DNA of 62,926 bases, the filler included, from Sluysia triapertura (taxonomy: Eukaryota): the NCBI GenBank assembly GCA_046118255.1. It is 5 parts of 5 records of this genome, joined end to end, with 100 filler letters (N's around TTAATTAATTAA, not from the genome) between each part and the next. Parts side by side here need not be neighbours in the genome. Positions count along the whole stretch, not along the records: positions 13,198 to 25,351 come from JBJNIA010134065.1; 4 more parts are not named here. The stretch is one strand, 5' to 3'. The position numbers and the translations under genes were made by a program. The notes under the pieces were generated by a model. It saw nothing but the letters and a program-made list of their open reading frames with translations, was not told the origin of the DNA and ran no database searches. Positions 5,101 to 62,846 of the stretch are shown piece after piece; position 1 is the first letter of the stretch, and each line of letters starts with the position of its first letter.

Positions 5101-8100
5101 AAAATTAACCATTTTTTAAACATTCACTTACACGAAAAATATCAATGATATTTTCATTCATAATTTCAATAATTTGCACAATTTTATTTTTAAATTTTTC
5201 ACTGCCATAAATTTAGTTACTCGATTTAGTCTTAAAAATTTTCATATATTTCAAACGTGTATGAGAATTGACTCCATTATTTTGGTGTTTGAAACAATTT
5301 ATGTTCATGTATAATTCTTCATTTTGTTTTTTTGACAATTTTTTTTATTCATTTACTTGATTTATTTTTATAATTATGAGCATTTTACCTAAGTATTGAC
5401 AATAACATTGAAAAATATAATTATTCTTAACTTTATATCTTTGAAAACCTATATAATTTTGCTATTCAAATCAGAATAATGCTTAGTTTCGTGTCCTACC
5501 TAATATAAGTACGGTTTAATTATTGAATGTGTCGACTTTAGTTCTAAAATGTGCAAAACATTTTAAGTTCAGAAAAACCAGTAAAAATTTTCAAGGAAAA
5601 AGTAATTAACAATTGCATTAGTCAATGAGTTTCATTGAGACTTTCTTTTCTAACCAAAAACGTTTTCATTCAAATTTAAATCTTATTTAATTGTAATTAA
5701 TATAATTAGCAATAATCAATTTTCATAACATTGTATTAGAAGAATTTAAGAAATATAAGTCCCATTTTGATAATATAAAAAGTATTAAAAAACTATTTTG
5801 AATTTTTTAAATATTCACATCTTAAATTTATGCGATATTTGTTTGGCAAAAATCTTTATATTTTTTATTGAACAAATTTTTATTTACAGGCAGTTAAAGA
5901 AGAAGTATATAGCGATACTTACGCCAAATTGTGTCTTAAAATTAAAGGATTTGAAGTTTCGGATGGTCTAGATTGGAATTTCAAGACATTATTATTGGAC
6001 AGATGTAAAAAAATGTTCGAAACTCCACTTCAAGATCAACTTGATACTGTTCGTCAATATTGGCAAGAAAAAGCTGAAAATGAATCTGATAAGGCACTCA
6101 AAAAGCTTTATTTAGATATTGATGAACAAGTGAAAAAAGAGAAAGATAAATATTTTGGAAATGCGAGGTAAGTTTAATTGTCTAATAATTAAAATTTATT
6201 TTCTTTGTCCAAGCCTATAAGTTATACAAATTTATCTGTGTCAGATATCTAAACAATATAGAAATAAATAGAATATTATACATAATGAAGTCGTGATAAA
6301 GTGGCAGAATCGACACTTTAGAAAAAGTGTTACAAAGGAATAATATTAGAAGTATTCCAAAAATCCAAAAGTTTTATTTACGTATGAATACCTAATATGA
6401 TACATAGTTATAATGAATAATTTTTTAATTAATATTTACTCAAGTACTAAAACTTTGTAGTTATTTTAAGACGATTTGTATTTTTAGTGACATTAAATCA
6501 TTAAAGAGAAGTGTCTAAGCTTTTCGAAATAAAAATTACCTTAATATTATTTAGGTTTATTGGTGAATTGTACATTCATAACTTATTAAAACCGGCTATA
6601 ATTTACCATTGTGTAAAAAATCTTATTTCTAAATGTGATACAGATGAAGCTTCAACAAAATCATTATGCAAATTATTAACTACAGTTGGAAAGAAATTTA
6701 CCGAACAGCACCCAGATAAAATGGAGGAAATAATATCTCTACTAAACGAACTTCTCGAAAAATTAAAAGATAGCAAAGATGCTAGTCGAATTAAATTTAG
6801 TATAATGGATATTATCGATATGAGTAAACGAAATTGGGAATTGAGAGCTGTACAACAACATAATATAATAAAACCAAAAAAATTCGAAGAATTAAAACAA
6901 GAGCAAGAAAAGGATAATTTACCTCAACAAAATGGAGTTGGTAATTCAAGTAATTTCTCTGCTACCAATAATAAAATGAAACAATCTGCCAGTGCAATTG
7001 ATTTTAGTGAGTATTTAAAATATTTTGGTATAACTTTTGCCAAGATTTTATATTAAATTTAATATTAAATTTTTTTATATTGTTGAAATATTAAATAACT
7101 TCAAGCTTGAAAATAAATAACTGTAAATGTTATTAGATTGTTTAGATTTAATCTATTTTCAATAATGTTTATATTGCTTAGGTTTATTGAAATATGAAAA
7201 GTACATATTTTAATCTTTTGAATACCAAACAATGTTTTCAGTATAATGTTTGTATTTCATGATGAAACTATTAGGTTATCGAATTTATTAAAGTTTTTAA
7301 ATTTACTTTAAGTTATCTTCATGTATTCATGTCTCAGAGGCATATCATAATGGGATTAGACTTAAATAATTCATGATGGTAATATTCATATTTTCGATTT
7401 TAAAATGGTTTTAGTAATAAAAATGCATATTATAATAATTGTTGCTTTAAATTAATTATTAATAATTTACTAATAGAACTCAAAATAACAAACTTTATAT
7501 ACGAACAATTCTACATTTAAATGTTTCATCACAAATTATGTTATTTTAAAATTACATGGTACGTTTACTTCAATTTACGATTAAATTTAATATTGCATCC
7601 AAAAATAATTAACGAGATTTCTAACATACTTGTCCTATTGTGATACAAATTGAAACCTTTTTTAATCATATATCTGTGCATCTACATGAAAATTTGTTAA
7701 ATTAATTTTCATATAATTACTAAATGATTATTAATTTTTATTTATATAAGTTCTATTTTAAATATAATCTTATTTTTTCGAAACTAAGTTAAATTTATTA
7801 GACGAATATTTAATTTATTTAGCACTAAACGTACAAGGTATCTATGCATACCATCGTCGGTCATTTGACCATGTCTACATATAAAAATATATAAAATTAA
7901 GTCATTATAAAATGACAAATAACAATACCATTTAAAAGTATTTTTTGAAGTAAAAAATTAAAAACGCACATTTGACCGGTCGTGGAACGCTTACATTTTC
8001 ACTTTGATGATCTTGAGTTTAACTTTAATTTCGATGCCATTTACTAAAATTCTAAATACTTATTACGAGTATCTAAAAGTATTTAAGTTATGATCTTTAA

Positions 8101-9254: not shown

Positions 9255-11733
9255 GGTCCCCCTTAATTATTGCATACTTTAAATTAATTGAATTAAGGTC
9301 AATATCTATTATTATATAACATATTGAGTTTCCGTTAAAATTTCGTTACAAATAATTGAACAATGCTCTTTAATACTCAAAAAGATTTAAATAATTTGTT
9401 CAGAGATTAAACTTTGTCAGATTTTGTATATTCAACATCTCAGATTCCAATAATCTATCTTGTTTATGCTAATTTATCTTTTAGAGATTTCTATTCAATT
9501 TCGGTATTTCGTGCACTTTATTGTACGTTTTCGAGTGACATTTTCTAGCTTTTCAACATTTTCAAGTAATTCAATTCTTTCATTGTCATATTACGGTTAA
9601 TAATGCATTTATATCGTGACTTGAACAGTTTTAGTGTTAATGTTAATGGTTAAGCGATTGAATTTGGTTGTTAAGTTTAAAATTTTGAACATGCCTGTTA
9701 AAATGTCTTAAAGTTTGTTGAAGGGCTGAATATTTTGAAAATACTGAATGTGTTCTGTATTTAATAATCAGTTTAATGGATTGGTGATAGGTTATTTTAT
9801 AATAAAATTTTGGATTGTGAGTTGGTTCAACGTACCACCAAATTATAAGAACCAATAGTTATTAAAATTTAAGAACTAATGACAATCAAAATTAAATTCT
9901 TGTTCGCAGAGTAATATAATCACATAACATCTTTACTATAATCATCTTTCCATTAAATCAACATTCTACTATCTAATTAATTTAGTAAGTGAAATAATTA
10001 ATTTAGTAAGTGAAATAATTAATTTAGTAAGTGAAATAATTAATTTAAAGTAAGCGCAATGCAATTTTCATTGTAATCTCTATACTTTATGGAATAATAT
10101 TTGTATAATTATTTAAAAATTGTTTAAAAAGATTCATAGAAATTCTTCAGAAAATATTTGTGTCTATTAGGTTTAAGTAATTAAATTTAAACCAAAATAT
10201 TGTTTGATTTTTAACTAAGTGATATTTGCATTTTCAATATCTATTTCAATTTTTAAAACTTATATATTAATTTAAGAAGTAAATTGAATAAATTTTCTGT
10301 TTAAATGTGCTAAAACTATTAAAACTAAATTTTAGAATTATGATTATATTCAAAACCTCATACATTATTAAATAAATATATTAGGTTGGTAAGTATGAAA
10401 TTTGTGGATAATATCAAGTTTAGTAGCTTATTATCTGACATTGTTTAATCATTTTTGCTGGAAAGTTACGTATCTCTCCTATTTAAAGATTTGTAAGCTC
10501 TAAAAATATTAAAAACATTTTTAAAAAATTAATTTTGTTGAAAATGTAACTGTCGGAAATTGGCACTAATACGAAATATTAGTTCGTGTGCGTAACTGCG
10601 GCATCGCATTTGGCTCTAGCGCTACAAAACAGCATAAATTATCTAATTTGTTCGCAAAATTCATAGGAGTAACTTTGACCTCTTAAATGGGCTGTACGGT
10701 CATCCAGAATCAAAAGTCAATAATGAATTATCATTGAAGTTGGGTGTTAGCAAACAAATACATTAACTAGCTTAGCTCAAATTGGAAAAGTGAAAAGGTT
10801 GGATAAATGGTACTACATAATCTGAATGAAAAACGTTTGGAAGCTTCCTGTATGTTGCTTTGTATTGTCACAAATCTGATTAATATTTTAAATCGAAATG
10901 TCACTCGAAGAGAAATGGATCCAATATGACAATCGCAAACTTTGAGCACAGTGGTTGGACGCAAAAGAAACTGATGGTGAGTCTTTGATTGTCTAGCGCT
11001 TGTATGATCCATTTCGATTTCATGAAACCTGGCTCATCAATCACAGTAGAAATATACATCAATCAACTGGACGCAAAAGCATGACGCACAACGGATCGAC
11101 TCTTATCTTATTGCATAATAAGATACACTATACTGCACAAACAACTCTTTAAAAATAAGGCAGTTGGGGTTGAAACTTCATTCTTCATACCTACCAGACA
11201 TAGTCCTAACTAACTACCATTTCCGCAATTTGGAAAGCTGTTTAATAAGGAAACAATTTAATCCCGACAATGCTGTAAATCTGGCCTTCCGGGAATTTTA
11301 TATAACCTCTTAAATGGCAAAAGTGTATAGACAATCCGAGTACATATTTTCATTAATAAAAGGAATTCCTTATTTTTTAAAGTTACCAACCAACTTTTGC
11401 TTTTTGCTACAAATTTCATCCTCAATGTCCTGATGTAATTTTAAATTCTAAACTAAGTATACCTTATTGGTATAAAGATTTAATGATCAGTTTAACATAA
11501 ATAATAAACATTTTGCAATACTAATCTATTATATAGATATTAAATCAAATTTTAAAATATTTTTAGGAACAAAACAATCCAACAGTAAAAAGTTAAATAG
11601 TCAAATTGAAGTTAGTTGTCTTACACCATCAACATCTCAACCATCAGACGTTTCTTTAATGCCGAGTGTAAGAATGTGGTCTCACGGAAGCGGTGTTAAA
11701 AACGAATCAGAACCATGGATAGAACAAGGGTAA
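2104..11733 (+). CDS. eIF4G: Eukaryotic translation initiation factor 4 gamma, 9 predicted exons (about 615 aa if the last exon is terminal)
   Basis: Exons 2104-2129, 2169-2190, 2234-2260, 2295-2316, 2377-2954, 3772-4047, 5890-6167, 6555-7006, 11567-11733. All introns are GT..AG and phases are consistent (1848 nt, no internal stop). Protein has the eIF4E-binding motif KIYNRSDLI (YxxxxL-phi), LNRSTKGYLP upstream of MIF4G, the MIF4G hallmarks FRIILNKIAPQNF, IFDKAVKEEVYSDTYAKLC, GNARFIGELY, LCKLLTTVGK and SRIKFSIMDIIDMSKRNW, and a post-MIF4G WSHGSG resembling WGKGSS. The last exon is the least certain. Confidence 0.93.
7823..7990. mobile_element. Possible decayed piggyBac-type MITE in eIF4G intron
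   Basis: Starts ttag-CACTAAACGTAC and contains GGTCATTTGACC plus a second CATTTGACCGG, resembling piggyBac-derived MITE subterminal motifs. No clean TTAA target duplication. Confidence 0.25.
9182..9252. repeat. (TAT)n microsatellite
   Basis: About 23 perfect trinucleotide units. Confidence 0.97.
9975..10046. repeat. 21-bp tandem repeat x3
   Basis: Unit aattaatttagtaagtgaaat repeated three times plus a partial copy. Confidence 0.9.
10381..11435 (+). mobile_element. Decayed mariner (cecropia/Hsmar1-like) DNA transposon inside eIF4G intron 8
   Basis: TA then TTAGGTTGGT left TIR; ATGAAATTTGT is shared in inverted form at about 11409-11419. Broken transposase frames read RLEASCMLL, KWIQYDNRKL*AQWLD, QKKLMVSL*LSSACMIHFDFMKPGSSITVEIYINQLD, LILLHN, PDIVLTNYHFRNLE and KWQKCIDNPSTYFH*, matching mariner DD34D transposases. 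Confidence 0.92.
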
Positions 11734-13197: not shown

Positions 13198-13523
13198 ATT
13201 AATCGCAACAATAATAATAATAGTCCATGATAATTAAATGGATTTCGAAAAGATGTTAATCGTAATAATAATAACAATAGTTCATGATAGTTAAAATTTA
13301 TAACTTTAATTTGAATTTTGAAAAGATGTTAATCATAATAATAATAATGATAGTTCAATGAGATGATAGAGCTTATTTTTTGAATGATTTCAATAGCTCA
13401 TTTAGTAGTTTGTGTATGTGTGTATCATTTTTAAGTGATAGGTTGTGTTGAGCTTTATGAGAAGAGTTATTATGAATGTTGTGTGATGAATTGTGATTGA
13501 TACCTAATGACGAGTTCCCCACA
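13198..13523 (-). repeat. Dispersed repeat family C (TGT(G/A)GGGAA terminus, AC-skewed tract); homologous to 34472-34625
   Basis: gttcatgata...tttttgaatga...tttgtgta...tgtgtg...ttcccca(ca) aligns with the reverse complement of 34472-34625. Confidence 0.75.
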
Positions 13524-13962
13524 ATTATTAAAGAAACTTTATAAATTTTACACTAATAACGTATTTTCAGTAAATCACTTATAACCTTTTAGTAAACATT
13601 AACAACACCACATCAAACATTCATCTTTAACTAACTATCATGACCCCTTAAAGTTTACATTTCATTCAAAAGTTTTAGAGACAAAAAAGAAAATATTATT
13701 AAACAAAACTTGAGTAAAATGTTAGTAATTATTATTATTATTATCATCCTTTATTATTTTTGAAATATTATTTTTATTATTTTAGATGGATCACGTACAA
13801 CTCTTTTTAGTTATTTTTAAATTTATAATCTGTCGAAGTCGTATGTGTAATTAATGAAATCAAAATACTTTTTGTATAGATACTCCATGCGCTTATTGTA
13901 CCTATATTAAGTATGTTATATAAATAGCAATTGACCATTTTTAGAAGGTATTAAAACAATTT

Positions 13963-14467
13963 CTAAAATATTTTATGTAAAGTAAAACGTCTATTTGGGG
14001 TTGGTTTTGTCTCGTGAAACCTATTTAGTAGATTAAGTTCTTGGTACCAATTTGATTGGTTAGAATATGCTTGTGGTAAATATTTATTTACGTAATTTGT
14101 GGTGCTGATAGGTTGACACCCATTTGGAAGTATATTAAGATAAAATGTTAGAAGTTTTTTGACCGTATTCAACCTTACGAATGTGACTTTATGACAAAGT
14201 AATTGAGTTATTTTTATATACACTTTGACATCTTTTACTATGTCTTGTTTATGATGAGAAATTATTTAAGTTCGGAGAATATGGCAACGAAATTGTAACG
14301 GAACCATCACTATTAGTCGAAATCATAGGTTTAAAACCTAGTATATTGAATTCTTGACTACTTGATTTACTGACTGATGCATTTGATCCAGATTTAGATG
14401 ATAGTCTTTCCGAGCATAATCTACCAATAATACTAGTCGTAGAAATGTTAATATTCGAGCTTCCACT
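13963..14467 (-). pseudogene. Frameshifted orphan ORF (Ser-rich N-terminal part), divergent from module B copy 1
   Basis: After ttaattag the frame reads SGSSNINISTTSIIGRLCSERLSSKSG...LPYSPNLNN, then shifts by one base near 14260 into ORF 13963-14223. No family recognised. Confidence 0.4.
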
Positions 14468-14510
14468 CTAATTAAGTTGTATATATAATGGTAATGAGAA
14501 TTGTGAGAAT

Positions 14511-14817
14511 TGTGATATATAGTGTCAACACTGGTGATGACATTTATAAAAATTAAATTAATATTAATTTAAAATTGATAGCAATAATAACAACAATATT
14601 GTCGTTATTATTGTTAACAATAAAAAGAAAAATTACATAAATCCTCTTTTCAAACTTTTACATGATCTTTTCTTTCTTAGATATAAAAGAAATTGAAATA
14701 AAAATTGGTGACTTTGGATGAAGTAGAACCGATAACAGGATGCGCTATGCTCGAGTTATCGTTGTTATTTCACTGTATAAAATTGAATTCTCTAAAACTG
14801 TTTTAGTGGCCACCACT
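14511..14817 (+). repeat. Module B copy 1 (internally deleted)
   Basis: 14511-14542 matches the reverse complement of 15840-15871 at 28/32. The tttaca(t/a)gatct block is shared with 15612-15662 (rc) and 59391-59445. Ends tggccaccact like 59928-59938. Confidence 0.75.
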
Positions 14818-15659
14818 TACAACCTAAAACTCCTTAAAACATAATATCCAATAACCATAATTTAAATTTCAATAAAACATAAATTCTTAAGCAGTCACAC
14901 TTCTTACTATCGAACTACACCAACTCAATTACCATAAATAACACTCGACATTTATAGCATCTCATCAATTCATATATATCAACAATTCGACGAATACTCT
15001 CAACCATCCACGTCACAACATACTCCAATAATTAATTTCGAATATCCCACAACATTCACCTCAAAGCTATTTCTTCAAATAAACCGCAACCACAATATAT
15101 AATACACAAATTATAAATACAATAACACCATTCAACAACGTTAACAAATACATGAGAAATAGAAAACATTTACATTAAAATCTTTAGCCAACTACACCAA
15201 GCTAAATCTACTTCATTTACACATATTCATCATCAACATTTATTCTTAATAACATTATAAATACGTTAAGATTTATTTTGTAATCGTCGTTTAAAACTAA
15301 AATAACTTCAACCTTTCGTTAAGCATCTGAAAATATCACATTTAAGGCTTAAATCTTATTTTTAATTATAAACTCTTAATAAATCTCAATACGTTTTTCT
15401 AACATTCTTCGTTTCAATTACAATTACAACTCGATTCATTCCTATTTCATTCAAAAATAAACAATTAAGCTTCAAACGATTCATTATCTTAACAAGAAGC
15501 AACAACGATAACTGAGACGTAAAATACCTCGTTATCGTTGTTGCTTCAGAATATTTCATAAGTTTTATTTCTTTTATTTATTATAAATGTAAGGACATTA
15601 AAGAAATATAAAAGAAAAAGATCTTGTAAGTTATTAAAAGAAAGTTTTATACTTTTTCT

Positions 15660-15700
<41 letters not shown>

Positions 15701-15726
15701 CTTAATGTTGTTATTATTGTTATTAG

Positions 15727-15781
<55 letters not shown>

Positions 15782-16030
15782 TATGTTAATAAACAATTAA
15801 AAATAAAAATACTCACCTTCTGATGATAAATCTGGTTACTGCCATCACCAGTGTTGACAGTCTATGTCACATTTTCATTAGGCTGTCAGCGCTGATGATG
15901 GTCAGTGATCAGTTGTTACTCATTTCCATTTTAAACCACTTATGAAGCATCACCCAATCAGAGTATAGCTCACTAGAAATTACTTATGAATACTTACTTC
16001 TTAATACTCTGATTGGGCAGACTAAAATCA
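14818..16030 (-). repeat. Module B copy 2 (AC-skewed tract, hairpin, AAT tracts, CCAAT inverted pair)
   Basis: Same block order as 59010-59938, in opposite orientation. Minus-strand splice donor gaag|GTGAGT at about 15816. Confidence 0.7.
15955..16017. promoter_or_regulatory. Inverted pair of CCAAT boxes, putative bidirectional promoter
   Basis: cccaatcagagtat (15955-15968) and atactctgattggg (16004-16017) are perfect 14-bp inverted repeats, about 250 bp upstream of ORF 16268. Confidence 0.5.
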
Positions 16031-16267
16031 GTAACTCACTTTAATAATTTTTATCAAATATTATCAATTAGGAGATATTAGTAAAAAAAATTGACACAAT
16101 TTGAAAATCAAAAAAGAAAAACGCTATTTTTAAATAATAATCACAAAAATTATTTTATGATCGTGTCGAATTAATTTAATTTGGAAACTATTAAACAATT
16201 TTAAAAAAAATTAACACAAGGAGATATTGAAAATACGTTTTGCCAACCTGGAAAATTAAATAAAGTT

Positions 16268-17864
16268 ATGTTACAAGTTTTAGTCCATCACTATCTTAAT
16301 CGCTATATCATTAATATCGTCAACAGTGAACATCCCAATTCGACTATCACTTGTTCGAATATCATAACTGATTCAAAATTGACGTTATCAAATCTAACAA
16401 CAAATGATACTTTAGTAAATACTCAAAAAAATCAAACTATATTGGTCACATTTCTAGTTAGGGCAAAAATTGAGTCGCAACCTATTGACGTTAGTTTTCT
16501 TAGTACTTACGTTCGAGTAAGATCATTTACGAAGACTAAATTAACAATGCACGAATCCACAGCGTTCTACAATATGTCTCCTCCTAGAGATGCCAAGTCA
16601 AAAGAATCTAATAATTACAAGAAAAAGATGGATACTTTGATCTTTCACTAATAATGATTTCAATGACGATAAAGATAGATTGTCCCAATTTCGATCAATT
16701 TAATGTCGACAAAAAACATATTGGTAATGTCGACAATTTCAAAACAAGAGGTTATACAATATACTCTGTACTTTTACTATATCCTTACAACAAAAATGAT
16801 GTTTATTCGGAATTAAACATTAAATTAGATATACTCCGACCAGACCGAATATATAAATTTGATTTTATAAATATACTTAATATCATGAACTCGACCTATG
16901 AAAGAAAACCCAAATTCCATGAATTAAATGATAAAGTATTTCACTTACATATAAAAAGCATTATGATGGTCATCATTCAAACTGTTAATAACCGGTTCAA
17001 AGTTACATTCTTACCGTCTGTTCATAGAAATATTGATTAATAACTATCCTAGTCTTCACAATAACATCGCTATGAAAAATGACGAAGTAGTTATATATTT
17101 TACCCGCAACATCAAATCTACAAAAGTTATAAACTACTACACACCGAATCTAAAGCTCATCCATTTATGACGACGTCAAAATTCATTACTTGAGAATTCA
17201 ATTATAGAACTTTCTTGTTATAATTACAAAATTTTTATTCATGATACTAAAATTTACGTAAGTTCTAAATTTTTACTTATGATGATTTCTAATTTAGTTC
17301 GACTTATTGTCGGTTGGATCTGTGAAGCACAATGTGGCGGTCTACTAATTCGAAAACCAGGAAAGAAAAGTAAACAAAAAAACAATCTTTTTAAGTTAAA
17401 TAGAATAGTTTTATGTGTTAACAAAAATATATATCATATTTATTAATTGAGTCTTAAAATTATTCATTGTAAATAAATTGAGCAATAAAATTAATTTATG
17501 TTATGCAAAAGCAAATAAATTAGTCACAGAAATTAATTTCAAAGATCAAAAATCACAATTCGCTAGGAAACAGACCGATAGTATAAAGAATAGTTATCTG
17601 TTAAAAAACTCAAAATTGACTTCCTTATTAAGAATTATCGGCATCGAAGACATGCTAAAAGATATCAGTAGATACATAGGCAATTTCTGTCCTCAATCTT
17701 ATCTAAACCTTGCTTCTAGAAATTTAGATTTATATGACAGGTCCATCAAAAATGAACATAAATATAAAAATCTTGTACTTGATAAAAGGTTTATTAACAA
17801 CGCGTTGCCAATAGATTATCCTAATACAACGCCGTTTAAGCCCTCTAATAACATTAATTATTAA
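16268..17864 (+). pseudogene. Run of co-oriented decayed orphan ORFs (16268-16651, 16654-17040, 17478-17864)
   Basis: Consecutive plus-strand ORFs of about 128 aa each with coding-like composition, interrupted by stops or shifts. No recognisable domain. Confidence 0.45.
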
Positions 17865-18413
17865 CGGATGTAAACTAATTTACTCTATGAACTGTAATAA
17901 AATTTAAAAGAAATTTTAAAAGAAATCAATATTTTAATAAATATTTTCAATTAAAGTTAATAAAAAAATTAATTTTAAGTTTTAATCAAGTAACATTACT
18001 AAATTCAACATTACCAAATTTAACATTACCAAAAAATTCTTTACTTTGATTTCTTTTTATGATCACAATATTATGTATTTTATTTTATTTAGAAAGACAT
18101 AAAGTTGATCGAATGGCATATCCAGACAAGAATAAAGAATCAGGCTAAAATTATTAAACAACTTCAAATAAGAAGGAAACTACGATCACAGATACGATAA
18201 AAAGAGATCCATCAATAACTATTTTAATAATTGCTGCTACACTATTTATTATTGTTTTAATTATTAATGATTATGATGTTTATTATGAATAAATGTAAGT
18301 ATACTAATTCCTATTCTAATAATGACGATGATAACCATTATTCTATTTCAAGAATTAATAGATTTTTGCTCCTCCAGGACCACTATTACCATCAATAATG
18401 TCATCATTATTAT

Positions 18414-19352
18414 ATGAGTATAACACGGACTTATGCTTATCAACACACTATAGTGGAATACAAATGTCATCAACGTTACTATGTATTTACTACAGATTCA
18501 TTTAAAATAACCAAAAATAAGTTAAGTAAGAAAATGTTTTATGATGATATACAATTAACTATCCAAGCTAAGACAGACGAAATAGATAAAAAATTACTTA
18601 GTTTATCTATTAAATGGTTAAATAATTGGTGCACATCTACAACACCATACAGAAGATATTGGATTATAACCTATGAAGATTTGTTCAAATCTCAATTAAA
18701 TAGAGTTAAAATAGCAATGGAATTAATAAACCGATTAATACATACTCAATACAATTGGATTCAAGCCAAACCTTATTTATTCTTTTATAGTTTTTGTAAA
18801 CAATGGATGAATTGTTCTATAATAGCATTAATCAATGAAATTAATCTAATTAACATAACCAATCCATCGTTAAATAATTCAATCGTAATAAGATATGGGA
18901 CTAATAGAGAAACAGTTCTTGAATTAATTCCACCTAAACAAACAATTATGTTGAACTATCACCATAAGTTAACCTTTCCAACTATGTACACATGGATACT
19001 TTTTAATAACGAAACAATAAGTATAAACAATTGGTCACTTGCACGACCATATAACTTAGTTATACTCATCGTCAATGAGACTATAAGCAACAAACTAAAT
19101 AAGAATAATGCAATTGAATCAATAGTAACTGAAAGGACAACTAAAATACCAAATAAATTTACTAAAATCAAATTTATTAACCTTAAAATTTCAAAACACA
19201 ATAATGATATTAAAGAAAAATTTGAAATCAACATTCATCTTTGCATATTTACATTCACGCTTTATGCTTTGCTTGCAGTCAAGCTTATGATTGAAGCCAT
19301 AAAAATGCATCTAGGGATACCTTGTACAATGACACCTTTGATTAAAGTGTAA
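18414..19352 (+). CDS. Orphan 312-aa protein with C-terminal hydrophobic (TM-like) segment
   Basis: Longest ORF in the window, unlikely by chance at this AT content. IHLCIFTFTLYALLAVKLMI near the C-terminus. Candidate upstream intron about 18295-18351 (gtaagt..ttcaag). Confidence 0.6.
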   Translation: MSITRTYAYQHTIVEYKCHQRYYVFTTDSFKITKNKLSKKMFYDDIQLTIQAKTDEIDKKLLSLSIKWLNNWCTSTTPYRRYWIITYEDLFKSQLNRVKIAMELINRLIHTQYNWIQAKPYLFFYSFCKQWMNCSIIALINEINLINITNPSLNNSIVIRYGTNRETVLELIPPKQTIMLNYHHKLTFPTMYTWILFNNETISINNWSLARPYNLVILIVNETISNKLNKNNAIESIVTERTTKIPNKFTKIKFINLKISKHNNDIKEKFEINIHLCIFTFTLYALLAVKLMIEAIKMHLGIPCTMTPLIKV

Positions 19353-19567
19353 GACTGAACAATATAAAAGTTACGAGTGATCGATGTTGACGGTTATTTT
19401 CTGTCCAACCAGTCACCTAACTTTACAAAACTACTTTTCGTAGTTATTAGCAATGTACATAATTAGGATCATAAATATAGCATTTTAACTAACCATTTAA
19501 TTAATTTTAAAATATTATTATATTATTATATTTTTTATTTTCTTCTTAAATTTAAGCAATTTATTTC

Positions 19568-19818
19568 ACTCGATGCTCAATTTGTCAACATTTTATACAT
19601 AAGCATTACACAAAAACATACCCTTGTTCGCATAATTCCTTTTTAAATGCATAATCAATCTCTTTCATTTTTCAATTACAGAATATATGAACTACCCATT
19701 GTGCAGAACTTCTGTAGAAGAAATCCATGTTTTTTATAAGGGTAAATTTAAACATTCATATATTTTGGAGAAAATTCCACTCATTGAAATTCAAGAGGTA
19801 GAAATGACACAACCATAA
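19568..19818 (+). pseudogene. Decayed C3HC4 RING-finger (E3 ligase-like) coding segment
   Basis: TRCSICQHFIHKHYTKTYPCSHN, then a 1-nt shift near 19640, then FKCIINLFHFSITEYMNYPLCRTSVEEIHVFY. This is C-x2-C...PC-x-H...C...(C>Y)PLCR spacing. Not in the ORF track. Confidence 0.75.
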
Positions 19819-20519
19819 TACATTAAGCAGAATAATAATAAACATTCGATAAGTACACTCTCCTTAGTTGCCAAAATCCAAGAAGCATAATAGACGTCGC
19901 CGATAAATAAGACGTCTTTATAAAAAAGTAAGTTTATATAATAAGAATAAGATAGTAAATCCTTTTCTTAAGAAAAATTGTCTAATTTTTTTACTCCAAA
20001 AATACGTAAAGTGTTAAATAATTAAAAACAATATATAAATTATGTAAAATAAACTAACGATTAACTTATCTAATGTAAACCTTTTCCTTTTCTTATAAAA
20101 TTTATTATTTTGTTCATATAAAATGACACAATCACAAGCAAAAATAATAAATAACCATTTGAATAAATAATAAATAATGAATTGACCGTTTCTCTGTGGT
20201 CAGAATGACACACCTATTACCTTCTTCAATTCTAAAACTACATCCAACATTTTAAAGTGAGATCGATGAGCCTTTCATCACTCACCTTTTTCTTGTAAAT
20301 AACCTAGATTCATCGTTAGTGCTAAATACTTTTCAAGGGTGCCCCGCGGATAATAGGCCTATTTTAATAGCAGCAGCTAGGGGAATCTTAGAGTTACTAT
20401 GTGTGTGGATTTTATCCCACTACAAATTTTGGCATTACAATTTAAAAAGACATGTGAAATTAAAATATCTACTTTTTAAGTTTTTATTAAATTGTCTAAT
20501 AATGATGAAGTGGTAAAGC

Positions 20520-21270
20520 TTCAAGTATGAATAAAAAGGTGTTCAGATGTATGTAATACAATTAAAAAGTACATCTTAGAAGAATTTAAATTATTATCAG
20601 AATCAGTGAATTGTTTAAATTATAAGACGACAGTGTCAGAAACCAATTATTCTATATTTTAGTTATTTAGTCTCTTAATGGACCATGCTATGTGTAAAAG
20701 TTAAAACCAATATTTTAGTACGTAATCGCTTTTGAACCATATATGTACACTTCATTCTAAAATTTCAGTTTTATCAAATCCAACAACTTTAGTTTCTCTT
20801 TCCTTCTTGTAGCTTCTTCTAAAAGATGACAAAATAATATTTATTCATCGACTCTATCTTCATAAATGTACCTGACATACCAACAAATGAGTGACTTTTG
20901 TAATATCAGTTGGTTCGTCTAATTGGATTGTAAATTTATAGTCTAATTTAATTCTAGTGAGATGTTGATACAATTGATAATTTTCAATATTAGAAAATTA
21001 TTTCATCACTGTATTTAATTTTAGCAATCAGATATGAAACTTCTGTAGGCTTGAATAAATATTTTTCGTTAACAGTCAAAATATTTATCTTTATTTGAAG
21101 ATTTGACATTTGTCTGAATATTCTTTTTGTTCATTGACGTTCGAAGAATATAACGATGCAAGATGCTTTTTTAATTTGATACTTTATTTTCTTGTTAAAA
21201 GTAAAACCGTATTGGAGAAATGTTTCATTATATTTTCTTTTGTAAGGCTTAAAATCTGCTAACTGATTAC
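20520..21270 (-). mobile_element. Decayed hAT (Buster/Charlie, ZBED5/SCAND3-like) transposase
   Basis: Minus-strand fragments KRKYNETFLQYGFTF, TVNEKYLFKPTEVSYLIAK, KFTIQLDEPTDI, YVRYIYEDRVDE*ILFCHLLEE and THSMVH*E occur in the canonical order of Buster transposases. Confidence 0.85.
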
Positions 21271-23144
21271 TTTATTCAACTTATTCTGTCTTATTCAACT
21301 TTAACTATTTATCCAGTTACAAAATATTGTTACCCAAAAATATAAATAAAATGACGCCCATCATACTAATAATTAAATAAATACTAACCTTAGTCGAGTA
21401 AAACAATAGAATAAAATATTTTATTTTTCTTGTAGTGTACACATTTGTTGTAATGAAACAGAAATAAGTGACTACACTTCAAAAGGGTTATCACTACACT
21501 AGTCTCGGTATTCATGTACGGCATATCACGATGTATATTTGCAGAATATTTTGATTCTGAAACAACTTAAGGACTAAAATTGCACAACTTTAGTGATATG
21601 TTCAATATGTAAATATAAGTTCGTGCATTTAAATTAAAATTTTGCGAAATTCACTTTATAAAACTCTGTTTATTTAAAGAATTGATCTTAGAAGTTAATA
21701 AAAGTTGACAATTCAAACACTATGCACAATTGGATCACAATGCAAACATTTTTTAATGACAAAAATCAACGAAAACTTCTAATACAAATAAATCCCAATT
21801 TAACTATTAAAATTATTTGCAATATTAAAGTGAAATAATATTAACTTTATTCAACATTTTAATTTTAATTACTTAACAAATTAATAAAATAACGATATTA
21901 TTTGATCAAAATTAGTCGATGCAAAAGGATTACTAAAAACAGTTTTTGTAGTATGTGTGCTAAATAAAACTTTGTAAAATATTAATCACATTATTACAAA
22001 TTAGTTAACATAAGACGAACACAATATTTTAATAACATTTTCTATAACGTCAAGTTTTTCTGGTTGTGAAAGACAACTCAACCAGAAAAAGATCTAAAGA
22101 TCTAGGAAGATATAAACCAAAAGGAAAATTAAAGCATTGAAAGCGCATATTTGAAGTAGTAATGTTATGCAAGATATCTACTGATACATTTTGAAAATTT
22201 GTCAGTATGTTTAATCTGCTTAATTATGTGAATTTTAAGGCATACTAAATGACTATATTACTATAAGTTACTACACTGAATGTATTATATTATTATTACA
22301 CTGAATATAACATTGTATCGATGATTAAGATAAAACTCTTAAGATCAGAATTCTCAATGAAGATTATTTGAAACCTAAAAATTTATTCTTAAACCTCTTT
22401 TTAGATTCTAATTTTCTTTTAACCGTAAAACTAAGAACTAGCCTAGGACTATGATCCTAAGTGACATTGTTTTCGTTACAAATGATTAATTTTTTAAAAT
22501 TTCTTTTTAAATTTTAAATATATTGCACATGAGCTGAGGCTCCTTTCCACCTCAATACCCGATAACCAAGATGACAAGGAATTTTGTTCATTTCCTATAA
22601 TTACTCCTGCAAAAGATTCAACTGATTTTGACATTTTTATCACTAATTTGCATATTGTTTGTAACATTTAATTAGGGGCCACGTTTTAAATTTGAAATTT
22701 TTAGAAAATCTCCCCAAACATAATGAGAATAAAAGTAAATAGACAAAATTCACATTAACACTATAACAAAATTTGAATATGTTAATTTTACTGAAGGAAA
22801 AAAATAGTATGCTCAAAAGTTTATATATATCTGAGCATCTTCTTGATCTTTATCGACACTTCAACATTATCGAAACAGTAATTTAACAAGAGCAGATTCT
22901 TTTCGGTTTGTGATGTAATTTCATATTTTATATGTAATTTCATACATCTAATATCATCCAATATTGAATAATGACGTTATGTGATACTCGATCGACAAAT
23001 ATATTCGACTTCAATTCTTTCAATCGATCATAATTAAACTGATAATATAATTTTAACTGAGAAGTCTTTGTTGCATCCTTTATATTATTCTTTATAAAAA
23101 TACTTAAATCAGTGGTCTTCACACTTTACCAGTCCAGTTTTTTT

Positions 23145-25210: not shown

Positions 25211-26059
25211 AGTAATTGCCTAGCTATAAATTCTTAATAATTTTATTTTTTGCACAAAAAACTTAGTTAATATATTGATGAGGTTCTTAAATTGAACCTT
25301 AAAATTACAATGATTTTAATGAGGTTCTGAAACTGAACCTTTGAGAAAGATNNNNNNNNNNNNNNNNNNNNNNNNNNNNNNNNNNNNNNNNNNNNTTAAT
25401 TAATTAANNNNNNNNNNNNNNNNNNNNNNNNNNNNNNNNNNNNNNNNNNNNAATATTAATATTGTAATTATTGTTATTATTATAATTATAATTATTATTA
25501 TTATTATATTAAATCCAGAGTTTTTGATCGTCATTAAATAATTCGTTCATTAAATAATTACATTAAATTTTGAACCACGTTGTATATTTTAAACTTAACT
25601 TGCAGTTATTTTATTAATTAATAGAACAAGAATGAATAATAAATTAATAACTAGAATGCAATTAAAACAGGACGCCATAATTTCAATTAATTTGCATAGA
25701 TTACTTGTGATGATTTTTCTTTTTGACTAATTAACTTTCAAAATTAATTATGCCTGATTATTATTATTATTATTATACTTACACTAAAATCTTTTTTGAA
25801 TATAATTAATTTAATTTTAAAATAGAAATTTATGATAAAAATGTCCTTTCCAAATTATTAAACTTTTATTGTTTTCTATTAATATAGGTTTTAAATTTTT
25901 TAATTAATGTCATCTCAATTTTAGGTAATAAAATTTAATTTGAATTTTATAAAATGTTAGTTTTTTTTTGTTTAATTTGTATAATTTTAAGTATTTAAGT
26001 AATTAAGTATAAAAAGTTGAATATGATGTCCAATTAGAATTTATTAAACGATTTATTAT

Positions 26060-26907
26060 TGCTGTGGTTTTCTTAATGCTAAACCTACGGCAAAATAAAA
26101 ATTGAACAGAGTCTGGTTACAGTAAACGTCTTACAACTCGGAGTTGACGCTTCTGTAACTAATAAGTTAAGAATATTACTAAGAAATAGTACTTCTAAGA
26201 CGTTCCTAATAATTTTGTTACGAGGGTCTTAATTTTAAATAACACAATAAAGAAAAGACTCAATTAACTTTTGAATTATATTAAACTAAAAGTATGCACA
26301 TAATAGTTATAATACAGAATAAAATGTAATTATTATTTTATGACCTAAATCCTATTAGGATATTCGATCTAATTACTTTTAAAATTCGAGTAGAAAATTC
26401 CCTCTCAATATATCGGGGTCCTTACACTATATTAAAGCTAAAACTTGATTTTTAGTGTATTTTAGTATCTTGACTTATAAAATCAAAATCACCTTAACAA
26501 TAAAATAAGTTACCATTTCATAGAATATAAAATCCTTCGATGAGAAATTTGTTCGTAGTCCAATTCGATCTGTATAAAGAAAATTTGTATACAAATTGCA
26601 AATGGCTGCAAAATTTAAAATGGCGATTTTCATTAAACTGATGCTAGTTTATATACTAGTCATCAGCCAATGAAAATCAATGGAATGTTCTAGAACATTA
26701 TAGAAGCTTCTATTCTATTTATAGAAGCAAATTTTCCTTTTTAGAATTTTCTTTTTTAGAAAAATAATTTTCTTTTTTGGAAAATAAATTTTTTTGTGTA
26801 TCTGGAAACGCAAAAATATTTTTTGAATGATTTAAATGAAATTTTAATAATATTTTTGATAATTTTAGGGTAATATTTTTGATAATATTGTGATGGCAGC
26901 CTAACAA
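26060..26907 (+). repeat. Dispersed repeat family A copy 1 (palindrome-rich, LTR-like)
   Basis: Shares gtggttttctta...acctacgg...gttacagtaaacgtcttacaac, aaaatggcgattttcattaaactgatgctag and ttctagaacatt..tagaagcttcta with the other copies. Confidence 0.9.
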
Positions 26908-28857: not shown

Positions 28858-29600
28858 TGTTAGGTTGTCATCATAACCCTTAAAAATCAATTAAAATGCT
28901 TTATAAATCTTTAAAATAATTTTAAAAATAATTATTTTCCAAAAAAGTAAATTAGCTTCTAAAAATAGAATAGAAGCTTCTAGAATGTTCTATAACATTC
29001 CATCGATTTTCATTGGCTGATGACTAGTGCACAAACTAGCATCAGTATAATGAAAATCGCCATTTTGGACAATCTAAATTCAATACAAATTCCATGTCAA
29101 AAGTAATTTATTTTTATTAAGTCGATATTAATTTTGTATAAGGAAATTAACATCATAACTTTCACTTAAAATCCGAATCTTTTTATAAAGTTTAAGGTTT
29201 TCCTGACATATTGATGGGTAAATACTGGAAAAATATCATAGATTTAAAAGTTAAATACTATTATTAGTTTTAACTTCAACAATTTTTTGTTAAATTTAAT
29301 TTTTATATTAATTCTGCCATTCTCTTAATCTCGCAGTCAATTTGTATTAATTGAGTTTTGAATAAAAATTTTGGATTTACATTTTGGTTTCTTTTGTTGT
29401 ACGATAAGTTGAGCCCTTACTTACTATTAGACCCTCCATCATTAAATTTGTTAAATAGTGTTATCACTCTTAAAGTAATTATTAACTTATTAGTTGCAGA
29501 GACGCCAACGATATGTTGTAAGACGTTTACTGTAACTGAAGCCTGCTCAAAAATATTTTACCGTAGGTCAAGAGTTAGAAAAACCACAACACTATCTTAT
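28858..29600 (-). repeat. Dispersed repeat family A copy 2 (inverted relative to copy 1)
   Basis: Reverse complement of 29481-29596 aligns to 26055-26170; 28960-29070 aligns to 26615-26730; boundary tgttaggttgtcatca versus tgttaggctgccatca. Confidence 0.9.
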
Positions 29601-29991
29601 AACCTATAAATTTTTATGAATATTAATATTCCATATTTTGTCTTGTATTTAGTTATCGTAACCCATTCAACACCAATTATTTAAATTTTTATGCGTATAT
29701 TTTGGAAGATTATACCCAATGTAACTAGCAAAACTTAATAAAACTTATTTTTTAATTAAATAATGATTTTTATTGAAAGTTTTATCGGTATTTTGAAAAA
29801 AAAACAGCGGTGTCGCAATGGGAACATTGGTAATGAATGAGTTAGAAACACGTTAGAAACAGTAATGACAAAAATACAAATATGAAATAAATTTTATTAT
29901 TTATTCCTATATTTATTTAAATTTATTATTTATTTAAATATTTATGAATTCAGATTGTAAAAAGGAAAAACTAAAATACACAAATATTCCA

Positions 29992-33430: not shown

Positions 33431-34471
33431 TAATGCTAAAAAACATAAATTGATTATAATTGTTTTGTATAAAGATATAGATAAACAAAGAAATATTTAA
33501 ATATAAACAAATATACGTCGTTTATAATTATCAAACTAAGTAGATATATTAAACTTTCAGAGATAAAGAATTAATTTCGAGCATACGTTGATTAATTGAC
33601 TAATTTCGATAAAATATAAGAAAGTAAGTAGAGATCTTCGCGCATTGAGTTACGCAACATTTTGACTCAATCCTCTAATTGTGTCTTTCGTGAGATCGAA
33701 ATCGCAAATAACAGGCGAACCTGTAGAATAATTCATAATTGTCATTCATAAAGAATATGTACAAAATAATTGCGTTTAGCAGAGTTTATTTTCACGAGTT
33801 TATGTTTGCGACAAATAAACTTTGTGAATTATTCTCACTTATCAGGATTAAGATAAAAAAATAGAGATATTAAGCATATTAAAGCTATGTTAGAATTTAT
33901 GGAAATTTGAAGCTAAGCGAATCTTTGTAAATGCAATTTGTTCATATAGTACTTTCATTTTTCATATATCCTATTATTTTCCAGGTCCTGAATATCCTGG
34001 TGTTCGATTTCTTCATAAAAATCAACAATTATAATTTTAAATAAATGGGTCCTTCTGTATATTGCGATTTAAGTCTGAACGAGGACACAATTACAGATGC
34101 TAGAAGAAATTAAAGCTTTCCTAGAAAAATCGAAAGATCAATGTGAAGGTCACTAATCTTCTTTTTACTCAATCCTTTAATGCAATCTTCACTTTTAGGA
34201 GTTATACCTTTTACAAACTCCTAAATTTAATTTACTCAACTTGTGCAGATTTTTAGTTCAGAGTATATATTAATTTGACAATATATTCTACGATAATCTC
34301 CTTTTTTTAATTATAAGTCTCACAATAAACTTCTTATCGTCATTAATTATTTCAATATTTGCTCTTTAAAACTCAACGAAAGAAAAGTACACAAAGAAAA
34401 CAAAATTTTATTAAAGAAATGTGGAATTAATAATGATACAACTAATATAGCAGAATACAGCAATAAATTAA

Positions 34472-34860
34472 TGTAGGGAATTCACCACACAAAATTCATC
34501 ATACTTCATCACATAAAAACACTTCACATGTACACAAATTATTAAACAAATTACTAAACTCATTCAAAAAACAAACATGATCATCGCACCTAATTATCAT
34601 GAACTACAGACATTATTATTACAATTCAACTCGTATTAAAATGTATATAATAATTATAGTCATTATTGTTATATAATATAATTATCAAATAATAACTTTT
34701 ATAATAATTTATAAAATAATTTTCATAATATATTTCAACATAAACACTTCAGTATTAATAAAAATAATAACCACGTTATTGTTATCATTATTATCATTTC
34801 TCTTATCCTTATTATCAATCTGCCTTTTTATTATTTATTTATTTTTTCCCAATACTATAC
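34472..34860 (+). repeat. Family C module (TGTAGGGAATTC start, AC-skewed then AAT-rich tract) preceding cargo ORFs
   Basis: Homologous to 13198-13523 (rc); block architecture parallels module B. Confidence 0.6.
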
Positions 34861-34954
34861 AACATATCTGATCCCGATATATCTGACTATGACACTGGAA
34901 AATTTGAACTTTTGTACAAGCAAGATCCATTTACAAAACCTGTTATCGATCTAA

Positions 34955-35378: not shown

Positions 35379-35418
35379 AATTTCTAATTAATGAATTTCT
35401 AGTGAAACATCCAGTCAA

Positions 35419-57500: not shown

Positions 57501-57741
57501 GTTTGCTGAAAGCTAAAGTAAGTGCCACATTTAAACAATAATCTTATAAGAAATTTTACGATGGGAAATTAAAACTAGAATCACATAAAAAAGTGATTTT
57601 ATATACACCACTACATAAACTAAAAATCGCATAAATCCTATGATAGTTCTTATCTGATACAAGATGCAACTGTGTGGGTTTATGAAATATTATATATTAC
57701 TTTTGTCGAAAAATTTAATTATTAAATTTAAATTAAAATGC

Positions 57742-58773
57742 TTAACAATTATTATAACAAAAACATGGACAACAATTAAAACATCTATTATATAAATTAT
57801 ATTTTTCATCGTTATTTGAATATGCTATTGAATTGAACCTACAATTTTTCCTAAATAAAATAAAATATATAAAATTATGATCATAAGCAAAAATCATAGT
57901 AAAAAGTTTTTTTATCTTAAAATTGTAATACATCAATGAATTAAGATTTTTGTGAATTCGTTGGTCTTCCATAGGCATTAGATACTTGTTGATTGAATTC
58001 TCCTCGTGTGATGAAAATATAAGGTTGGACACTAAATTCTTAATGTGTTGATAGTGGTTACCCATATTCGGTATATAAAAATTTGGTGTTTTTAGCTCGA
58101 ACAGACTATGTGCATAATTACAGTTTCTTCCGAATTTAATATATTCCTCTCTTTCTGTTGTACAATAACTACATAAAGCTGTCTTCTGGCATGTTGAATA
58201 CAAATTTTGTTTGCCGTCGTTGTTTTGTGTACATTGTTGATGTTGATCAAGACGATTTCCAGTATTGAGAAAATTTATGACATGTTCGTTTACCATAAAA
58301 TTATGAGGCCTCATGAATAGATATTTGATGGATAGATAAAGTATATACACTTCTTGCAATGCCAACTAACATAGGACGATGCCATATCATTACATATAGT
58401 TTTATAATACATATAATCAATAGGTTTATTTATGCATTTAGAACTTGTAAAACGAGGAGACATTGATAGTAAATTACATATAACAAACTTTATCTTTAAT
58501 ACCAAAATGGGAATAAACACGAACAGATACCTTAAGTAATCTTAATTTTAGTTTATTAATCGAGCATATTTCACATTTCTTGTATTCTATATTTCCTTTT
58601 GGATACTCTGAAGGTAATTCTGATAGTAATATCGAGCAGCTCATAAAATGTGATTTAGTAACCGATTTATTTAAACTAGACGAATGAGAGACTACATTGT
58701 TGAATTTCCTTTGAAACCCATTATTATCAAAAGTTTCATCATCGTTTCCAAATAAACATAATAAATCTGCCAT
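57742..58773 (-). pseudogene. Decayed tandem CCCH zinc-finger (TIS11/ZFP36-like fingers) gene with N-terminal CxxC motif
   Basis: Three overlapping frameshifted ORFs. Finger 1 YYKTICND...CKKCIYFIYP; finger 2 KTALCSY.....E(C>Y)IKFGRNCNYAHSLFEL; N-terminal KKCEIC. Confidence 0.75.
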
Positions 58774-59009: not shown

Positions 59010-59938
59010 TTTGTGATTGGATGTCCAGTAAAATGTGAAATAAAATATACATTGATGATATGGAACTGATTGGACATCCAATCAAATAAAAGAAAAATTA
59101 ATTGATAGTTATGTTTCAACAATGTGTATTTGTATCGTCACTGACAGTACAGACGTCGTCAGCAACAATCAATGTGTAATGAAACAATTAATAGTAATAG
59201 TTTAATCATGAAGGTAATGATAGAGAATAATAAAAATAGTGATACGAACAGTAACAATAGTTATATCAGATTAATTTAAATTAATTTATAACAATGATAA
59301 TACTAAAATTAAAATTACTTTTTTCCGCATAATCTTTCTACTATAAATCTTTTTATTATTATTCTATTATTATTTCTCATATTAATAATAGAAAAATAAA
59401 ACATAAATTCCTTCTTATTATCTTTACAAGATCTGTCTTTTGTAATTCTTGTTTTTCAAAATATTAAAATTCTTTACTTAATGCCTTGACATAAAATAAA
59501 AATCGAACATAAATCTTATCGAAGTTTTATAAATAAACTTTTCTTTACATATAAAACTTTTGCTTATAAGTGTAAATATTTGCTATCTAAGATGTAAATT
59601 GAGATTCTAATGTTATGAAATAAGGAATAAAAATGTTTTAAATGAATTTTAAGGTATATTGATGGTTTAAGGGTGTAAATTGTGGTTTGAATTGTGAAAG
59701 CTTGTGAATTAAAATGTTTTGAATAAGATGTAATGTGTATTAATGGTTTTGAAATGAGACCAGTTTTAGTGGATCTGAAAGAAATAAAAAATAAAAAGGT
59801 TTTAAAAGTATAATAGGTAAAGTGTTATAGAATGTGGTTTTGTGTGTGATGTTAATTTAAATTTGAAATGTTGTGAAGAGTGATTTTATTACGTCAAGAT
59901 AAAATAAAATTTGTTAAAGTAATAGGTTGGCCACCACT
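59010..59938 (+). repeat. Module B copy 4 with inverted CCAAT pair
   Basis: tgattggatgtcca (59014-59027) and tggacatccaatca (59070-59083) form a perfect 14-bp inverted repeat. tttacaagatct block, GT-skewed tract, terminus aggttggccaccact. Confidence 0.7.
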
Positions 59939-61010
59939 AACTGATCCAAAACACAATACGCCTGCTGTTACAGTTTATAGAAAAAGACGTAAAAAGTTTT
60001 ATTTTCCGCCAAAAATACAATTTCCGAGTAAAGATGAAAACAATGCAGATAAAAATGAATTTCATAAATGTAGTACACTCGTGACTGCAGCATCGTTCAT
60101 ATTTATTTGCTTGTAAAACCTAAAACTCTCGCAAAATCTTTTTCTCCATAAATGCATTTCATTTTGAACCTAATATCAAAAATATCTTCCAACAAAAACG
60201 AACACATTAACACATATTTTCCATCAGTAGCCATATTTCATAATCTTCAACACCAATAACTATAAAATAATAATATTCATCAATTTGTTAGCTAATTTGT
60301 CCACTCATTGTTCAATAATCTGTAGCTAATAAAGACAAAAAATTTTGCCAATATTAGTCAATATTGACTTACATCTCCATGCGTCAAAATTATAATTATA
60401 AATGCATTTCAAATACCATAGAGTTGGTATCGATGAGTTGTTAACCTCATCTGTATCCAATAATTCTTTTAATCCAATCTTCAGGGCGCTATAGCAACCA
60501 AAATTATGATAATAATAATAATGATTTCAATTAGGCATAATGTTTGGATTGCCAGACTGATAAATAAAAAATTTATCCTTGTATTGTCGGAAAAGAATCA
60601 TGAAAGTAAAAACACATATAATGATGTTAACAGCTAAAGAATACCTTGGCATTGTTGCGTCTTTAATAATGGTACTTAATAATAATAGCAAATTTATATC
60701 GGTTAACAAAACTTCAATAATTAATCATTAAATCCAATATAAAATTATCACAAATTTCCTTATTTCGATGATATTATTTATTCAATCCAAAGATTAAGTT
60801 TTTTAAAATAAAATAAACAACAACAACAATGATTGTAAAAAAATCAAATACCAATTACTGTTATAAGTATTTAATAAACAACAATAAAATGACTAAAACT
60901 ACAGGATTAACGATAACGTTTATAATAATGTCAAGTATATGACAGTCTATATGAAGAAACAAACACTAAAAATATCAATATCCAGAAAGTTTAATATAGC
61001 TATGATGCTT

Positions 61011-62720: not shown

Positions 62721-62846
62721 TAATGAGAAATAAAGTGTAGGGAAATAACTTATATAGTCTTAATCCTATAAAATCTGTGGCGAGTTAATTGTTTTCTTTA
62801 ACACTGGTTTCAGATCCTTTTAAAAACAGGATCATCAATAAAGCTT

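Follow-up and report, generated by a model that had tools for sequence, protein, structure and literature searches.

Conserved ends around unrelated interiors in two copies of a decayed dispersed repeat: a candidate non-autonomous transposon with probably exchanged middles

Background

Two similar AT-rich blocks, at 18010-18140 and on the minus strand at 57929-57801 of the window (the whole stretch of 62,926 nucleotides analysed here), appear to be the downstream ends of diverged copies of a decayed, non-autonomous transposon whose middles were exchanged by ordinary capture or recombination. We give this reading a probability of roughly 0.55; against it, there are only two anchored copies, and several of the upstream alignments are marginal. 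The order of parts is identical in the two copies (hereafter copy 2 and copy 4): first a G-poor segment, then hairpins, CCAAT boxes and a start-codon context, next an interior of open reading frames (ORFs), and last the AT-rich block (hereafter the anchor) followed by a poly(A)-like signal. The pattern of conserved ends with unrelated middles is supported by the anchor, by a collinear upstream block and by interiors that resemble each other no better than shuffled sequence does.

Captured gene pieces carried between conserved transposon ends are a familiar finding in plants and have been described in animals. In the excerpted accounts that we used, Penelope-like elements frequently lie beside an inverted truncated copy and keep introns (PMC8557442), Terminons contain numerous ORFs (PMC6431247), Helitrons capture promoters together with gene pieces (PMC4778049), the HINEs of mites have palindromic subterminal repeats of 12-15 bp (PMC4067079), and Pack-TIRs are present in animals (PMC8277862). 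The element considered here is undescribed in the literature searched, which is too small a body for a claim of absence from print.

The window has a GC content of 23.7%. It contains two highly diverged host genes, an eIF4G-like one that is spliced and multi-exon (2376-7056, +; MIF4G, E 5e-19 in Pfam) and a GSKIP-domain gene in a single ORF (54754-55113, +; E 7e-27 in Pfam). A piece of the former found 11 weak relatives at 28-35% identity, the five named ones from flies, and a homologue search with the latter found nothing; the host is taken as an animal, with no closer assignment. Identical 100-nt spacers (a 12-mer with stops between two runs of 44 N) stand at 13098, 25352, 39222 and 50202, where scaffolds of 11-14 kb were probably joined end to end to make up the window. 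Because the spacers look like scaffold joins, copies 2 and 4 need not be linked.

Results

The anchor is shared by two sites of the window

In a self-BLAST of the window, 18010-18095 aligned with 57929-57848 on the other strand at 80.2% identity over 86 columns and 74.3 bits, whereas the same search gave at best 55.4 bits in the reversed window and 58.1 bits (mean 47.9) in 20 block-shuffled windows. When 220-nt tiles were compared on both strands, the anchor's partner scored 81 and the best unrelated tile 38. The first-pass annotation had reported a match between 18057-18126 and minus-strand 57885-57815; the sequences it quoted lie where it placed them, and the match is real and extends further. 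It had also raised the prospect of an independent short repeat found anywhere. Within the window, a profile built from the two copies retrieved the anchor at both backbone sites and nowhere else (next match E 0.27), and the 17-mer before the AG is present at these two sites only. The anchor pattern had no match in metagenome contigs. Conservation is highest up to the AG, over a stretch with the GT..AG limits of an intron, and lower just past it and in a weak block further downstream (Table 1).

Table 1. Positions of the features discussed, counted along the window (strand "." where none applies).
Feature	Position	Strand	Remarks
Inverted arm, copy 2	14500..14799	-	homologous to 15468-15880, then other ORFs (14467-13966)
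G-poor backbone segment, copy 2	14800..15500	+	5% G; very deeply covered
Hairpin 1, copy 2	15497..15546	+	16-bp perfect stem, 18-nt loop; z -10.2; register comparison
Hairpin 2, copy 2	15646..15803	+	(TAA)n/(TTA)n inverted repeat
Hairpin 3, copy 2	15830..15914	+	85 nt, long stem, pre-miRNA-like shape; G-U pairs favour + strand
Two CCAAT boxes, copy 2	15954..16016	.	opposite orientation; putative promoter
Start-codon context, copy 2	16085..16211	+	pairs with 58853-58720; ATG 16157, frame closed after 5 codons; upstream edge of unrelated interior
Interior, copy 2	16205..17864	+	orphan ORFs 16205-16651, 16615-17040, 17171-17446, 17451-17864, changing frames; no relevant family match
Anchor, copy 2	18010..18092	+	AT-rich, ending in AG; putative short intron or coding hydrophobic stretch; 67/81 identical to 57931-57851; frame test
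Near-palindrome, anchor core, copy 2	18057..18068	.	12 bp, 11/12 (perfect in copy 4)
Past-AG sequence, copy 2	18093..18140	+	less conserved; 30/48 identical to 57850-57801
Weakly similar tail, copy 2	18205..18320	+	65/113 identical; Cys-rich end in anchor frame, AATAAA at 18288; likely the unit's 3' end
Orphan 317-codon ORF downstream of anchor	18399..19352	+	depth step at about 18212; no homologue
Past-AG sequence, copy 4	57675..57850	-	Cys-rich ORF end (stop at 57742), ATTAAA at 57719
Second ORF, copy 4	57742..58365	-	continues across anchor; CCCH-like finger at about 58185-58084
Anchor, copy 4	57851..57931	-	81 nt, GT to AG, stop-free in upstream ORF frame; perfect palindrome 57875-57886
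First ORF, copy 4	58474..58773	-	from ATG 58773
Three CCAAT boxes, copy 4	59014..59084	.	
Hairpins 2 and 3, copy 4	59110..59400	-	weak; z -1.9, -1.8
Hairpin 1, copy 4	59516..59565	-	10-bp perfect stem, 18-nt loop; 7/10 pairs changed on both sides vs copy 2
G-poor backbone segment, copy 4	59500..59900	-	4% G; marginal alignment to 15138-15660
Oppositely oriented arm, copy 4	59920..60400	+	marginally similar to 14760-15150; 125.5 vs null maximum 123
G/C-asymmetric segments	9600-9800, 13300-13700, 44200-44500, 50300-51400, 53700-54300, 59500-60400, 61400-62000		

The ends of the anchor resemble the acceptors of the host eIF4G gene, which likewise consist of T-rich runs followed by AG, and by this resemblance the anchor is a putative, unproven splice acceptor. 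The ORF of copy 4 runs through the anchor, and across the 66-nt core no frame of the six but this one is open in both copies. That frame scores above re-dealt substitutions (P 0.047) and leads into a Cys-rich tail downstream in both copies; the synonymous excess is not significant (3 against 1.5 expected, P 0.18). Intron and coding C-terminus are thus both live readings of these sequences, and the latter would be an equally good rival to the acceptor and exon proposed at first. The anchor folds no better than shuffles (z -1.2 and 0.2). Since it is more conserved than its flanks, contains a 12-bp palindrome and has no RNA fold, it is probably a cis signal acting as DNA or a more recently exchanged block.

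A faint upstream backbone is better preserved in structure than in sequence

Against copy 4, 4 of the 49 copy-2 tiles rose clearly above their own shuffles, three of them upstream and the fourth at the anchor. The upstream tiles are collinear (15601-15738/59450-59297, 15760-15869/59317-59218 and 16085-16211/58853-58720), so that the upstream and downstream blocks follow each other in the same order and orientation, as the first-pass annotation had described. The stretch 15590-15960 scored 176 against copy 4 (null maximum 158). The G-poor segments (192.5, null maximum 194) and the CCAAT stretch, 15930-16330 against 59110-58640 (137.5, null maximum 139.5), did not exceed their nulls. The shared promoter-like block first proposed is therefore real as a shared block but faint, and lies mostly upstream of where it had been drawn, its CCAAT part being at the level of the null.

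Structure supports homology of the backbone better than sequence does. The loop of hairpin 1 measures 18 nt in copy 2, in the inverted arm of copy 2 and in copy 4; between copies 2 and 4, seven of the ten inner pairs differ on both sides and are still paired. Perfect inverted repeats of this kind number four in the window, two of which are hairpin 1 of copies 2 and 4. Hairpin 1 is succeeded in both copies by hairpin 2 and then hairpin 3, which are strong in copy 2 (z -8.9 and about -9.3 to -10.0) and weak in copy 4. For hairpin 3 the ORF strand folds better in both copies, and in copy 2 the + strand reaches -50.0 kcal/mol with 5 G-U pairs, against -33.8 kcal/mol with 1 on the other strand; its Rfam matches were sub-threshold only, far below gathering scores. 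This is the most stable hairpin of the window, and the inverted arm retains only its 5' side (about 14555-14508). At the downstream edge of the backbone, the ATG that opens the first ORF of copy 4 pairs with the ATG of copy 2 whose frame closes early (Table 1).

The interiors do not align with each other

The interior of copy 2 spans about 1.8 kb and holds four orphan ORFs; that of copy 4 spans about 0.8 kb and holds a CCCH-like finger. That the two look unrelated, as had been noted, was supported at both levels of comparison. At the DNA level, 16200-17980 against 58720-57960 scored 162 (null 170.6 +/- 9.2), no better than shuffles. Protein-level homology had been named beforehand as the finding that would speak against unrelated interiors, and none of the 28 ORF pairs reached P<0.01. 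The best, at P 0.045 against shuffles, was a 22-residue match between the first ORFs of the two copies (E 0.006 pairwise). By this match the first 30-80 codons of the interiors may be related.

ORFs of 148, 141, 137 and 317 codons in copy 2 exceed chance, since 0 of 500 shuffles had two of 130 codons. The copy-2 ORFs found no relative in Pfam, the ESM Atlas, viral and metagenome contigs or PHROGs; the second interior ORF in particular found nothing in the ESM Atlas, and a PHROGs search with 19 proteins gave weak matches only, none of them for the two interiors. The 317-codon ORF, which lies beyond the anchor in what is probably a separate, more abundant repeat, had no homologue among 1.84 billion representatives, in the ESM Atlas or in viral or metagenome contigs, and its single-sequence structure model was unusable (mean pLDDT 37.6). 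Pfam likewise returned nothing for 43 short ORFs, nor did ARAGORN, or Rfam at its gathering threshold.

The opposition of orphan ORFs to a CCCH gene, drawn in the first-pass annotation, holds for the orphan ORFs but has to be softened for the finger, which falls below the Pfam cut-off (PF25427, E 1.3e-4, 22.3 bits against 31.1) and lacks one cysteine. It resembles tandem-CCCH proteins (PDB 6nzl, E 0.0028; unkempt, 5elh; tristetraprolin, 1m9o) in its KTxLC...CxxAHxxxEL sequence; unlike them, the ORF has one finger only, and in the alignments the second cysteine of C-x-C-x5-C-x3-H is absent, leaving fewer than four ligands. A search among longer proteins found no parent gene. A finger without one ligand fits a decayed captured fragment.

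Copy 2 is a dispersed repeat with a more deeply covered upstream block

Contigs from public run X1 (0.42 of sampled words) were placed on 14000-21000 at 80% likeness. The 6400 contigs comprised 599 at >=99%, 1201 at 95-99%, 2267 at 90-95% and 2333 below 90%, that is, 4600 under 95%. Because many diverged contigs cover all of copy 2, interior included, copy 2 is a dispersed repeat, and its interior, being itself repeated, has been amplified with its flanks. Summed depth ranged from 8220 to 73568 across 14702-16105 and from 243 to 758 across the interior; it was 589 for the bin that contains the anchor, 1341-2425 for 18212-19147 and 35-40 for the right flank, where a 3.7-kb contig (depth 17) is an exact match. 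These values are used here as a contrast only, because the tool states that depth is not copy number. The contrast puts the abundance of the upstream block well above that of the interior, and the anchor, no deeper than the interior, speaks against a widely shared downstream anchor. Among the 40 differences listed (800 more lie beyond them), 13 fall in ORFs and 3 of these are synonymous, as expected for a dead copy in neutral decay. Short joints in the contig placement (e.g. 20031 to 15821) were discounted, being probably mismappings of AT-rich sequence. In the same run, coverage is very deep over two short segments, 19150-19400 and 19850-20080, and run X2, from a different coded organism, contained an identical 238-nt piece at 19182-19419 (depth 2.3).

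The backbone continues into other ORFs elsewhere

The inverted arm of copy 2 (14799-14500) aligned with the backbone at 204 (null maximum 167); it departs from it inside hairpin 3, unlike the other junctions, and has no anchor. Two modules, at 13540-13200 and 34460-34800, are weakly similar to each other and to copy 2. The second opens a unit at 34460-37100 (+) in which a G-poor block akin to 13540-13200 precedes intronless orphan ORFs in tandem; one of these is hydrophobic (35019-35378), and two that overlap are Asn/Thr/Ser-rich (36344-36908). Since the arm and the module at 34460 continue into other ORFs, no fewer than three different ORF sets adjoin the backbone, and their junctions are not identical. 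In four tests the unit at 34460-37100 had no significant match to either end of copy 4 (P 0.08 to 0.57), so that a third anchored copy at 36300-37150, plausible by eye, was rejected. The P of 0.007 obtained for one protein pair in this unit is no more than multiple testing allows, 42 pairs having been compared, and we regard the fourth start motif, at 44688, as a chance occurrence.

Comparison with known classes of mobile element

Several traits recall Penelope-like elements and Terminons as the excerpted accounts present them: an inverted arm by the upstream end, clear in copy 2 and marginal in copy 4, a terminal block with a putative promoter, a possible retained intron, several co-oriented ORFs and an association with microsatellites. 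Unlike Penelope-like elements, neither copy shows a reverse transcriptase, GIY-YIG domain, hammerhead or direct pseudo-LTR pair. Pfam found no reverse transcriptase, GIY-YIG, transposase or recombinase on reading through stops in six frames of 14700-20300 and 59850-62900 and in the three sense frames of 57700-59940, a search that may miss decayed domains, as it also missed a retrotransposon relic seen nearby by eye. Neither copy contained a hammerhead (Rfam, E<=1), the one core from a descriptor scan lying outside them at 46380, and neither had a downstream repeat of the hairpin block. The hammerhead ribozyme is absent in the Naiad and Chlamys Penelope-like elements.

The presumed captured gene pieces beside a putative promoter, the internal microsatellite and a 12-bp palindrome resembling the subterminal repeats of mite HINEs are reminiscent of the Helitron/Helentron/HINE group, to the extent that the excerpts describe it. 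Unlike Helitrons and HINEs, the copies have no GC-rich hairpin with CTRR at either end (the one candidate in the window is at 44975, and decayed ends could be missed), no matched subterminal repeats and no Rep/helicase. The palindrome occurs once per copy with no stem-loop after it, copy 2 having an 8-10 bp partial partner upstream. Conserved ends round unrelated interiors and multicopy chimeras are shared with Pack-MULEs and animal Pack-TIRs, again as excerpted; in contrast to these, the ends are not mutual inverted repeats, only scattered 11-mers, mostly A/T-only, being found between the candidate ends, and no target-site duplication was found in a search limited by undefined element ends. 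Integron-like paired sites are not apparent, as the bracketing repeats differ between copies and no recombinase was matched. The element resembles these classes in how it would work, but a reverse transcriptase, endonuclease, hammerhead, Helitron 3' end and terminal inverted repeats were sought and not found, so we file it under no known class; decay weakens these negatives.

Discussion

We favour exchange of middles within a decayed transposon. The unit would be transcribed from the CCAAT block, the backbone lending promoter and 3' end to whatever interior sits between. Template switching or gap filling during copying could have given one lineage the CCCH-finger fragment and another lineage different ORFs, and each chimera would then have spread as a subfamily mobilised by an enzyme encoded elsewhere. 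We infer transcription, splicing, mobility and capture alike from the DNA; the outward-pointing inverted arms and strand-biased folds make us lean towards an RNA-intermediate, Penelope-like mode, without establishing it. The 22-residue match between the first ORFs runs against this reading, as it hints that the first part of the interiors may be homologous.

That match also serves the account that we consider unlikely but the most probable of the rivals, in which one fast-evolving element gene simply diverged, its middle by insertions, deletions and decay, the anchor being its conserved coding C-terminus (a hydrophobic stretch, basic residues and a Cys-rich tail). The start-codon contexts pair and the match follows, the copy-4 frame is the sole one open in both anchors (P 0.047) with the Cys-rich tail in the same frame, and an intron more conserved than its exon (83% against 62%) would be odd. 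Yet upstream non-coding DNA can still be aligned while no ORF pair among the 28 reaches P<0.01; the finger is confined to one of the interiors, whose lengths are about 1 kb apart; and the excess of synonymous change falls short of significance (P 0.18). Chance similarity of two AT-rich intron ends, which the low GC content and the T-rich, AG-ended host acceptors might foster, is scarcely credible given 74 bits when the best of 21 controls reached 58, a match that runs past the AG and a 17-mer confined to the two sites.

Depth would also fit a different arrangement, in which an abundant upstream element (a solo terminal repeat or a preferred insertion site) and an anchor-bearing ORF unit are separate repeats that happen to adjoin. 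Depth drops from 8220 to 243 at about 16100 and climbs again at about 18212, not at the anchor; the arm at 14799-14500 and the module at 34460 run into other ORFs without an anchor; and the region is dense with decayed repeats. The identical order and orientation and similar spacing of the parts in both copies, and homology that runs through the start-codon context, render such a pile improbable. Cassette-like replacement, the mechanism put forward in the first-pass annotation, could not be sustained: there are two cases, no recombinase or paired sites, two other modules without the anchor, and an anchor no deeper than the interior. In its strict form, a site-specific or homology-guided swap of ORFs between fixed ends through TTATG(ATC) motifs at the edges of the slot, we hold it to be decidedly improbable. 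In its favour, a 12-bp palindrome forms the core of the anchor, which is better conserved than the sequence around it, and 10-bp and 6-bp direct repeats bracket the interiors of copies 2 and 4, respectively; these repeats were noticed after the fact, sequence common with copy 4 sits inside both brackets, and the upstream motif doubles as the start codon.

Taken in its ordinary sense, exchange of middles within a transposon adds one more family of gene-capturing transposons. Its significance would be greater were the ends to fall outside every known class, which the failed tests leave room for, and were the backbone to lend promoter and 3' end to interchangeable ORFs, which would open a direct way for lineage-specific orphan genes to arise. 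The boldest version, an undescribed and very abundant animal mobile element acting as a natural expression vector, with a conserved hairpin array, CCAAT promoter, start-codon context and palindromic 3' signal and with unrelated orphan or host-derived genes swapped at fixed junctions, strikes us as rather improbable.

Other repeats in the window

The surroundings of both copies are rich in decayed repeats. Next to copy 4, at 55600-57690 (+), we noticed by eye what we take to be decayed Gypsy-type reverse transcriptase and integrase motifs, which were not confirmed by Pfam or PDB; this relic stops where the similarity of copy 4 to copy 2 stops. Decayed motifs at 20300-21300 (-), also seen by eye and presumably of a hAT/Buster-type transposase, were not confirmed by Pfam, and depth there is low in run X1. 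Extreme G/C strand asymmetry marks many segments, several of them in outward-pointing pairs (Table 1).

A second repeat family has four copies (25873-26770, 28913-29778, 48310-49270 and 61897-62679), two of them inverted around 2.1 kb, and a conserved core with a palindrome and a CCAAT box, in which we made out by eye what we take to be heat-shock-element and YY1-type motifs. A third is present in direct and inverted copies at 50302-50600, 52854-53140 and 53800-54760. The first and last segments of the window have repeats in common, at 83-161/62847-62926 and 502-595/60558-60653.
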